DNA of 42,138 nt from a virus (IMGVR_UViG_2737471818_000002:1-42138); one strand, 5' to 3'; shown: positions 5,327 to 7,219, numbered from the stretch's first letter. The notes: generated by a model from the letters alone, not told the origin. Program-made: numbers and translations.

Positions 5327-7219
5327 TTATCCTACGCGTCTTGTTATGTTAACTGAAAATGCCGCATCAGCAGGCGAACCGGATGAATTTTTAGTTCTTA
5401 CATTAAATGCACTATCGCTAAGGTTAGCAGTACTCGTAACTGTGAATCCATCTGTGTTAGATACGGCAACCACCACAAAATCATTACCTGATGCTGAGAC
5501 CCCTAACGGATATGAGCTAGTTATCCCATATACTCCAGTAGATGATTTGCTTACTGATATATAATCAGGACCACTTATTTTAGTACCATCAGCAGCAACC
5601 TTGACAGGAATAACTTCACCTGATGAGTATAGAGTTCCAAGGCTGGTTCTTTCGCTAAATGTACATGTATTTAGACCATTTACTGTTAAATTTGGATTGG
5701 GGGTTATAAAAGGTTTGTCAGCTGTAGGGGTGTATCCCCAGGATGTATTTGTGAAAAAATGACATCCATTTAGATTTAATATAACCCTACCAATTCCACC
5801 AGGGACAGATATCTTAAAGTTGGTGGTTGTATATCCCCCGTCAGATCCACCGCGGTTAAACGTTACTCCATTTAGATTCACAACAACAGTTCCTCCTCCA
5901 GCATTAATAATATGAACATCAGCATCACCTCTATTCGCCTCAAAATAATTGCCATTCATATTAATAACGCATAAAGCTTGGGTTACTCTAAGTGCAATAG
6001 CCCCTGTTGAAGAGTCTCCTGTTACTCCATTCCTTTCAAAATTGCAATTATCAATATTACATGTTAATCCAATAACTCCTTCAATCGCTTTTCTGGAGCA
6101 TGATGATATCGATGAGTTGGTAATATATGTAGAATTTGTTGGAAACGAAGAATCAGGTGATTCAATGTATAAACCATATAATGAATTATCTACCCTTATA
6201 TTTTTTACATAGTTATAGATACAACTTGAGAAATATACAGGGATGCCAAGTAACGCGGCGCGAACATTCTCAACAGCAATAAACGTGCAAAAACTGTACT
6301 TGAGGCCACCGCTTGCAGTTTTACCCGTACCAATGATTTGAAAATCCCCGTGCCTCATATGCGTGTTAGTTCCCTGTACAACCGAACCAGAAACGCCGCC
6401 TGTATGTGTGAGCAGGAAATTATTATCAACTGTAAAAATAGTATTGTTTAGAGAGGATCCAACAAAATCATAACGTGGACTGCCAGCCCCCAGCGATGGG
6501 AATGATGAATCGCTGAAATTTGTAACAAGAGCAGTATTTACCGCATATCGACCATCAGGGATCTTAATCTCCCCTTTCCCCGCAGTAAGCAATGCCTGCA
6601 AACGAGTCGAAACGTCAGTATTTGGTGATGTATTAGGGAGCCACGCTTTAATGCGTGAGCCAATGTCAGATGTCCAGCCTAAGTCTGGCGATGAGCCAGA
6701 TGCAACGATAACGCTATCTCCGGTTACTCTTGCATAGCACTTTCCATCAAACTTATACCATACAGCCTGATTTGGTGCGCTAACTGTTGCCCCTTCCTCA
6801 AAGCTACCATCAACTAGAACGATTCCAAATTCCTTCAAGTACTTCTTCCATAATTCCCTGCTACTCAGGAATGATGTGACTGACCGCGTGTCATTTTTAA
6901 CTCTCGAGAAGTAATACTCCTGAGAGCCGTATGCATCGTACACAGCCATAGAATAGCCTTGCACGGTTACGAACTTGGAAATCTGTCCGTTATATACCGG
7001 GTAACCAGCAGCGTTAATGATGATTGGTTGCGATACAGGAACGTGAGAGCCGTCTTCGTTTTCCACATAAACCTGAATCTGGTTTTCAGGATTTACCGGG
7101 TCAGTGTCAATTTTACCGATATAAATTTTGCCATTGGCTACGGCTTTAAAAGAACGCGCCATAGTGAATAGTTGCGAAGGCATCGATACGATCACATTGG
7201 CATTTATTGAATCTGTCAT
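5327..7219 (-). CDS. Tailspike protein: P22/Sf6-type N-terminal head-binding domain plus divergent beta-helix receptor-binding domain
   Basis: 630-aa ORF; N-terminal ~110 aa closely match recalled P22 gp9/Sf6 tailspike head-binding domain ([22 protein letters not shown]...); C-terminal part Gly/Ser/Thr/Asn-rich and AT-rich. Confidence 0.85.

Follow-up and report, generated by a model that had tools for sequence, protein, structure and literature searches.

The prophage and its tailspike locus

The stretch of viral DNA analysed here (IMGVR_UViG_2737471818_000002:1-42138; 42,138 nucleotides, hereafter the window) contains a P22-like prophage (Lederbergvirus, Sf6/IME10-type) that is apparently complete and lies at argW of E. 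coli. Its att repeat, for which 0 matches were expected by chance, delimits ~39.4 kb adjoining yfdC, in the order yfdC-argW-intS, and the backbone is ~96% identical to phages IME10, Louie, and Dewey. The virion genes are P22-like, with gp7-, gp20-, and gp16-like genes (PF25688, PF16928, PF26808) upstream of the tailspike gene in addition to those for coat and portal. Here int is followed by gtrA, gtrB, and gtrC, and the tailspike gene comes next in convergent orientation:

1064-1083, plus strand: attL core, in the tRNA-Arg(CCT) gene argW at 1009-1083 (ARAGORN; repeat search)
2556-2918, plus strand: gtrA (PHROG GtrA, E=5e-70)
2915-3832, plus strand: gtrB (PHROG GtrB, E=1e-184)
3829-5295, plus strand: gtrC, 488 aa, GtrII-type serotype-specific glucosyltransferase (PF14264, E=2.6e-28; PHROG GtrC-like)
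5302-5322: GC-rich hairpin AAGGAGGGC-CTC-GCCCTCCTT, 9-bp stem, within the 31 nt that separate the stops of tailspike and gtrC (convergent genes)
5327-7219, minus strand: tailspike ORF, ATG start, 630 codons plus TAA stop (ORF list)
40430-40449: attR, partner of attL

The three gtr genes show the pattern of a GtrABC glucosylation operon (GtrA flippase, GtrB bactoprenol glucosyltransferase, and a variable GtrC, in that order), and GtrC is 31% identical to SfII GtrII. The intergenic hairpin, which is followed by a T-run on the minus strand (terminator scan), reads as the tailspike terminator. In Salmonella, phase variation of gtr is under Dam/OxyR control; the 153-nt region upstream of gtrA in the window has one GATC, and one more is found at the int end.

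The tailspike is encoded by one uninterrupted ORF of 630 aa. Exactly this protein has been deposited at NCBI (WP_064753885.1, 'phage head-binding domain-containing protein [Escherichia coli]'), and the sequence itself is thus already public, without an assigned function. We found the exact sequence on 12 contigs, one locus (L003) having 100% DNA identity to the gene, and its 90%-identity cluster comprises seven member sequences, which are from E. coli wherever a source is named.

A conserved head-binding domain

The protein can be divided into four parts as follows:

6899-7210, minus strand: head-binding (virion-attachment) domain, aa 4-107 (Pfam PF09008, PDB matches, and megablast edge)
6515-6898, minus strand: linker helix, small N-proximal subdomain, and first coils, aa 108-235 (GC 0.43-0.46; secondary structure of the model)
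5615-6514, minus strand: variant-specific low-GC body, predicted right-handed parallel beta-helix, aa 236-535
5330-5614, minus strand: predicted C-terminal beta-domain, aa 536-630 (model strands 537-627; homology to the C-termini of Sf11 gp13 and Sf101)

The N-terminus had been recognized as a P22/Sf6 head-binding domain in a sequence-only reading of the locus, and our searches bear this out. Pfam PF09008 covers aa 4-107 (E=3.1e-57; 192 bits vs. a cut-off of 24), and phmmer against the PDB matched aa 1-107 of Sf6 gp14 at E=1e-55 and the N-terminus of P22 gp9 at E~1e-41 to 1e-43 (~1e-42). All Sf6 and P22 alignments end at tailspike aa 107-108. Against phage genomes (tblastn), N-terminal identity was 87% to Sf6, 83% to HK620, and up to 92% to other coliphages, with matches that span just 17-20% of the query. 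The CUS-3 record annotates a 'boundary sequence' beneath its matching stretch.

At the DNA level, megablast against 5,426 complete E. coli genomes gave matches only to the 5' ~310 nt of the gene (window ~6908-7219). The head-binding DNA is shared by ~1,100 E. coli genomes, and the similarity stops at window ~6908-6916 (codon ~102-105); the remaining 1.58 kb had 0 megablast matches in the same genomes. Given that the edges of the Pfam, PDB, and megablast similarities coincide, the join at codon ~102-108 is real. Two other database labels fall within the head-binding domain. A Galactosyl_T match (Pfam, E=0.16, below the cut-off) was considered noise, and the top PHROG label, 'colanic acid degradation', was rejected as its match is confined to aa 2-107.

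Together with the PF09008 adaptor, the gene has its place at the end of the virion/ejection-protein cluster of a P22-like genome, and the protein is predicted to continue into a right-handed parallel beta-helix and a C-terminal beta-domain. Adaptor, genome position, and fold make it a bona fide P22-like tailspike. It resembles P22 gp9, Sf6 gp14, and HK620 gp9 in the head-binding domain (70-87% identical), in the head-binding/beta-helix/C-terminal layout, in its position at the end of the late operon, and in its neighbouring conversion genes, but the receptor-binding domains of those three are without detectable sequence similarity to ours, and their specificities (Salmonella O:4/O:9 types, S. 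flexneri Y, and E. coli O18A1) cannot be transferred to it.

Fold and family of the receptor-binding part

As had also been noted from the sequence, the remainder of the protein is of a different kind and rich in Gly, Ser, Thr, and Asn (40.9% in aa 108-630 vs. 27.1% in aa 1-107). No Pfam (2025 copy) or NCBIfam family was matched in aa 108-630 even at E<=10, including when isolated segments were scanned. The segment at aa ~120-185 likewise had no match to Tail_spike_N (PF18668) at E<=10 (Pfam). Many PF18668-bearing proteins match only aa 7-115 of the query (phmmer), and in a relative from Hafnia paralvei (P0003) the segment equivalent to aa ~120-185 comes after a genuine PF18668 domain.

In an AlphaFold2 model of moderate confidence (monomer; mean pLDDT 74, pTM 0.58, with pLDDT >90 at residues ~290-450), aa 108-630 comprise a helix, a small mixed subdomain, many short beta-strands in a long series, and a C-terminal beta-domain. 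The receptor-binding part thus models as a right-handed parallel beta-helix followed by a C-terminal beta-domain. Comparison with known tailspikes, which had been proposed as a check, is consistent with this, as the best Foldseek matches of the model in the PDB were the full-length Sf6 and P22 tailspikes.

By sequence, the relatives are others. The receptor-binding domains of P22, Sf6, and HK620 showed no homology to our beta-helix (phmmer alignments end at aa 107-108), and the sole PDB-listed relative of the receptor-binding part is gp13 of Sf11 (PDB 9OCC, 9occ_G), which matches aa 215-628 (E=3.9e-31; 28% identity; phmmer). In that entry, gp13 is modelled at residues 4-59 only, and the receptor-binding part is outside the modelled range. 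Unlike our phage, Sf11 is a Shigella siphophage, and its gp13 attaches to the distal tail protein via an N-terminal helical bundle. The tail protein of Sf101 (YP_009153089), a Shigella phage of the genus Lederbergvirus, matches over the full length (BLASTP, E=5e-79; 35% identity), with ~27% identity outside the head-binding domain. Sf101 shares the head-binding domain, a homologous beta-helix and C-terminal domain, and a spike gene directly upstream of a convergent O-antigen-modifying gene. It differs in that the ~120-235 subdomain is absent (a large alignment gap), the neighbour is an O-acetyltransferase gene rather than gtrABC, and the host is S. flexneri. Among the relatives, only these two Shigella phage spikes have been studied by experiment. 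On the strength of beta-helix and C-terminal homology and of a common signature (E..YFE.N.G..D..F.R), we assign our tailspike to the Sf101/Sf11-type receptor-binding family and not to those of P22, Sf6, or HK620. As neither Sf101 nor Sf11 gp13 has a defined cleavage chemistry, and identities reach just 35% and 28%, no tailspike of known specificity was found to be closely identical over its full length, and the reading of the gene as a chimera of uncertain specificity stands in this respect.

The receptor-binding family is a small one, with N-termini of many kinds. With residues 110-630 as the query, just 24 matches came back from 5.8 billion proteins in a word-indexed search, and an exhaustive HMMER search of 1.84 billion cluster representatives (50%-identity clusters) yielded 253 matches with E<=1e-3, of which 91 reached E<=1e-10 and 25 reached E<=1e-30. 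Among the close relatives, the same receptor-binding domain (58-83% aa identity) was found behind three unrelated N-terminal adaptors:

P22 head-binding domain: P0002, P0006, P0008
Tail_spike_N (PF18668): P0003 (Hafnia paralvei), P0007, P0009, P0011
N-terminus of ~230 aa without a Pfam match: P0004, P0005, P0010

The ~230-aa N-terminus is one that we take to resemble those of epsilon15/phiV10-like phages. When an O-serogroup was sought for our tailspike, both the receptor-binding part and gtrC were absent from the 5,426 complete E. coli genomes. A literature search on the assembly accessions JUCM and JUCL found no mention of them, and the protein accessions were not found in the supplements of a study of E. 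coli tailspikes and serogroups (PMC10408124). One member of the cluster of a sister tailspike (P0006) is from E. coli O19:H42; its subtype differs, and it was left out of the serogroup inference.

Candidate catalytic residues

In the family alignment (94 sequences, down to ~26% identity), nine polar residues are the most conserved, and for four of them codon coordinates are given:

R249, conserved in 91%
N362, conserved in 99%
E395, conserved in 96% (6035-6037, minus strand)
Y425, conserved in 97%
E427, conserved in 95% (5939-5941, minus strand)
N429, conserved in 95%
D434, conserved in 96% (5918-5920, minus strand)
N439, conserved in 96%
R456, conserved in 100% (5852-5854, minus strand)
5918-6037, minus strand: stretch with the near-invariant carboxylates E395, E427, and D434, candidate catalytic residues

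In the model, E395, E427, and R456 each close a short strand (393-395, 425-427, and 453-456) on three successive coils, and they would therefore be stacked along one face of the helix, a placement read from the secondary-structure register of the model alone. E395 and E427 are 32 residues apart. In P22 (E359/D392/D395), Sf6 (E366/D399), and HK620 (D339/E372), the catalytic carboxylates are ~33 residues apart on adjacent coils. The conserved carboxylates and their P22/Sf6/HK620-like spacing thus favour an endoglycosidase centred on E395, E427, and D434, which, next to R456, likely form the catalytic centre; counterparts of all three carboxylates are kept in Sf101. Alternatively, the conservation of these residues could have a structural reason and not a catalytic one.

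GC profile and nested exchange boundaries

Exchange of the receptor-binding domain had been proposed from the sequence, with a drop in GC as part of its signature. The exchange itself is well supported by the end of E. coli DNA similarity at codon ~102-105 and by the presence of one receptor-binding domain behind three adaptors. The drop in GC is also real, but it is not at the domain joint; aa 108-214 have a GC of 0.464, and the onset is at about codon 220-320:

Codons 1-107: GC 0.433, GC3 0.46
Codons 108-214: GC 0.464, GC3 0.42
Codons 215-290: GC 0.434, GC3 0.34
Codons 291-630: GC 0.35-0.41, GC3 0.21-0.27
gtrC: GC 0.325
Rest of the prophage: GC 0.478

The low-GC stretch extends past the tailspike gene, via the 31-nt intergenic hairpin region, into gtrC. 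Comparison with two sister E. coli P22-like tailspikes, P0006 (locus L009) and P0008 (L007), gives a second edge within this profile. Codons ~30 to ~200-235 are ~100% DNA-identical between these and the window, whereas past codon ~250, as far as the stop, just 50-73% identity is left (sliding comparison). On the other side, the sister loci match gtrA (97.6%) and gtrB (87%) as far as window 3821/3822, no more than 10 nt from where gtrC begins, and gtrC is exchanged for an unrelated 424-aa GtrC of the PF19528 type. This delimits one further feature:

3823-6550: low-GC variable core, i.e., gtrC and the distal two-thirds of the tailspike gene (blastn breakpoints at 3821/3822 and ~6300-6600, the upper boundary being approximate)

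In the sister E. coli prophages, the core is swapped in one piece, with flanks (gtrA/gtrB and codons ~30-200) that are 87-100% identical, and it coincides with the low-GC island. As read from these alignments, the gene has one exchange boundary at codon ~105 and, nested within it, another at codon ~200-250; it is the latter that the GC drop marks. Earlier work documents modular exchange well, both behind the head-binding domain and across phage genera (PMC10408124, PMC2629481), and the finding of exchange is therefore in itself unsurprising.

Linkage of the receptor-binding domain with gtrC

The relation between the tailspike and the modification made by the adjacent gtrC had been left open in the sequence-only reading. 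In every instance that we found, gtrC adjoins this tailspike. Two chromosomal sites, argW/yfdC in one case and ybhB-bioA in the other, carry the identical pair of tailspike and 488-aa gtrC, with 99.5-100% DNA identity; the P22-like backbones around the two differ, and their ejection-protein genes are unequal in length. In at least five assemblies, the accession numbers of the tailspike and GtrC proteins are consecutive.

The linkage extends to another genus. A single blastn alignment of 4,282 nt (78.4% identity) to the Hafnia paralvei locus of P0003 (L013, 8467-12744) covers the following stretch:

2554-6828: collinear block, from tailspike codon ~131 to the stop, the hairpin, gtrC, gtrB, and the gtrA start, common to the Hafnia paralvei prophage

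Hence, the receptor-binding domain belongs with gtrCBA to a single collinear block of 4.3 kb, a finding new in this analysis. Of the full relatives of the receptor-binding domain with another adaptor, P0003 is the closest (83% aa identity); its locus also encodes a 488-aa GtrC (89%), GtrB (82%), and GtrA (68%), and keeps the same hairpin (intergenic sequence) and the same 31-nt spacing. It differs from ours in its Tail_spike_N (PF18668) adaptor, in its genus, and in residing in a long-tailed prophage (tape measure, Dit-like, and sheath-initiator genes).

Other members of the family show related arrangements. The receptor-binding domains of P0006 (head-binding adaptor) and P0007 (Tail_spike_N adaptor) are 90% identical and their PF19528 GtrCs 79%, and the P0007 locus has an extra acyltransferase gene between tailspike and gtrC. 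P0008 represents a third beta-helix variant, with a GtrC just 70% identical to that of P0006. For P0005 and P0010 (both with the Pfam-less adaptor) and for Sf101, the next gene is a convergent Acyl_transf_3 O-antigen acetylase, of differing types. Altogether, an O-antigen-modifying gene lies tail-to-tail with the spike gene in all eight contexts that have downstream sequence (gtrC in five, one of which has both enzymes, and only an acyltransferase in three). In this small sample, the type of modifying enzyme follows the receptor-binding subtype. Judged by these comparisons, the receptor-binding domain is passed on with gtrCBA in a single block, and the relation to gtrC is not arbitrary. Nonetheless, the sample is small and adjacency alone could yield co-replacement; a functional coupling of the receptor-binding domain with gtrC is therefore what we infer, to be read with the corresponding caution.

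A probable O-antigen endoglycosidase with a linked, proposed masking enzyme

We consider it probable that the protein is an O-antigen-specific endoglycosidase tailspike whose linked GtrC masks the same O-antigen in lysogens. Residues 1-107 would dock the spike, presumably a trimer, onto the tail, and the protein from about residue 120 on would be a module gained by recombination, comprising the beta-helix and the C-terminal beta-domain. This module would bind the O-antigen of the host and cut it as an endoglycosidase, allowing the virion to reach the outer membrane. In the lysogen, GtrC may then glucosylate the same O-antigen repeat, and the glucosylated repeat would be a poor substrate for the tailspike, such that superinfecting relatives are excluded and the LPS of the lysogen is spared.

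Our working model by analogy is BTP1, a Salmonella P22-like prophage that also has an adjacent GtrC. The BTP1 GtrC is reportedly of the acetyltransferase type, whereas the one in the window is GtrII-like (PF14264), comes with a full gtrAB, and is known here from its sequence. The GtrC of BTP1 is reported to work without GtrA/B, to modify the O-antigen receptor and so shield it from the tailspike of the same prophage, and to block superinfection (PMC4413052). Masking of the O-antigen as proposed here would agree with this precedent.

The target could be another surface glycan (group 1/4 capsule, colanic acid, or ECA), with a gtr operon that is functionally unrelated to the spike. P22-like head-binding domains do carry capsule depolymerases too (e.g., the CUS-3 endosialidase, met in our tblastn search), such depolymerases are abundant among the fold-search matches at similar scores, and the top PHROG name mentions colanic acid degradation. 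However, that PHROG match is limited to aa 2-107, the eight contexts with an O-antigen-modifying enzyme downstream are eight out of eight, with a type that tracks the subtype, and Sf11 is reported to take O-antigen as its primary receptor, from host-range spot tests (PMC12724387); another glycan as the target is accordingly quite unlikely. A module that acts on O-antigen as a lyase, an epimerase-like enzyme, or a non-cleaving binder is also an unlikely reading, even with fold matches that include hydrolases, lyases, and epimerases at like scores. The conserved carboxylate trio on adjacent coils is the pattern of the P22, Sf6, and HK620 hydrolases, and beta-helix polysaccharide lyases and epimerases work on uronic-acid polymers, which are uncommon among gtr-modified O-antigens.

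It might further be argued that the prophage is defective and the gene a relic in it, a mosaic without present function, considering that many argW-linked E. coli elements are remnants (the K-12 site holds the defective prophage CPS-53, with gtr-like genes of its own) and that the P0006 loci look rearranged, with a 340-aa gp16 fragment and integrase and excisionase genes upstream of the tailspike. We regard this as very unlikely, as the ORF is full length relative to its homologues, the tailspike is identical in 12 contigs and on different prophage backbones, and the prophage is of the expected size and retains both att sites along with a complete set of virion genes.

Beyond the endoglycosidase reading, the beta-helix and gtrC may constitute a portable 'recognise-and-mask' specificity cassette, one contiguous low-GC segment that is moved as a unit and that would encode both the enzyme recognising and cutting a particular O-antigen and the enzyme masking it. 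We put this forward tentatively, as a possibility to which we lean a little less than we doubt it. Such a cassette would pass between an E. coli podovirus, a Hafnia long-tailed prophage, and probably an epsilon15-like prophage, and gtrB and the conserved N-proximal region of the tailspike would act as recombination arms.

Implications

Tailspike receptor-binding domains fix the host range of phages and serve as O-antigen probes and depolymerases. Biochemical or structural study of this protein would characterise the whole family, including the spikes of Sf101 and Sf11. The chimera as such is ordinary phage mosaicism, and the part worth following is the 'recognise-and-mask' block common to the Hafnia prophage. 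Co-inheritance of receptor-binding domain and gtrC provides a concrete, testable case of recognition and masking functions as one exchangeable unit, and it points to a possible means of pairing orphan O-antigen-modifying enzymes with their glycan substrates. If the coupling is functional, the specificity of an uncharacterised GtrC or acyltransferase could be predictable from the linked tailspike, and vice versa.

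Tailspike-gtr block in other prophages

The tailspike-gtrCBA block was also detected, at 99.5% identity, in P22-like prophages adjoining ybhB-bioA (L001, L004, and L005; 14302-15591). In these three loci, the interval from gtrA to the host gene at ybhB-bioA lacks an integrase gene, and the att/int geometry of these copies therefore differs from that of the argW copy in the window. With regard to the Hafnia paralvei prophage (L013), the cassette abuts genes typical of CP4-57-like islands (13151-17564; CbtA/CbeA toxin-antitoxin, RadC, an antirestriction protein, YfjT, and DUF4942), so that the block is located at a prophage/island junction.

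Among related tailspikes, the metagenomic P0007 locus (L018) showed an Acyl_transf_3 gene inserted between tailspike and gtrC (1850-2920), such that one spike is adjoined by two O-antigen-modifying enzymes. The prophages carrying the sister tailspike P0006, which has a P22-type head-binding domain, look rearranged or degraded (L009 and L010, 1-6000): gp16 is present as a 340-aa fragment, genes for an HNH endonuclease and an Arc/Mnt-like repressor immediately precede the spike gene, and int/xis are located just ~4 kb upstream of it.

Genes and signals around the tailspike and gtr genes

Features annotated around the block and in the host flank (window coordinates)
7254-7645, plus strand: two small ORFs, of 67 aa and 59-64 aa, reading away from the start of the tailspike gene
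7283-7302, minus strand: terminator-like hairpin within the first of the two small ORFs, immediately 5' to the ribosome-binding site of the tailspike gene
7659-8024, minus strand: 121-aa gene (phrog_1365, annotated as unknown function)
8059-8544, strand opposite to the 121-aa gene: 161-aa predicted lipoprotein starting MKKSLLIIPLLLAGC (phrog_6067, annotated as unknown function)
40891-42138, beyond attR at the window end: host gene encoding an MFS permease of the oligosaccharide/galactoside type (TIGR00882, E=9e-179)

Given the position of the hairpin just upstream of the ribosome-binding site, expression of the tailspike probably requires read-through from the late operon. The first small ORF may be spurious, since the same hairpin falls inside it. 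We note that two moron-like genes (7659-8544) separate the gp16-like ejection gene from the tailspike, the position of the immI/sieA region in P22; the predicted lipoprotein might be a superinfection-exclusion factor.

Phase variation of many Salmonella gtr operons arises from a four-GATC Dam/OxyR arrangement. Such an arrangement was not evident upstream of gtrA (2403-2555 and the int end): one GATC alone occurs within 2403-2555 (in ATCGATCGAT), and another is found at the int end.

Tailspike residues ~120-185

Searches using phmmer showed that tailspike residues ~120-185 (window 6665-6859) match dozens of proteins bearing Tail_spike_N (PF18668); the Pfam PF18668 model itself gave no match to this segment. 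In the Hafnia paralvei tailspike P0003, the matching segment comes after a genuine PF18668 domain. Residues ~120-185 may represent a degenerate second Tail_spike_N copy that accompanied the module in its transfer onto the P22 head-binding domain.
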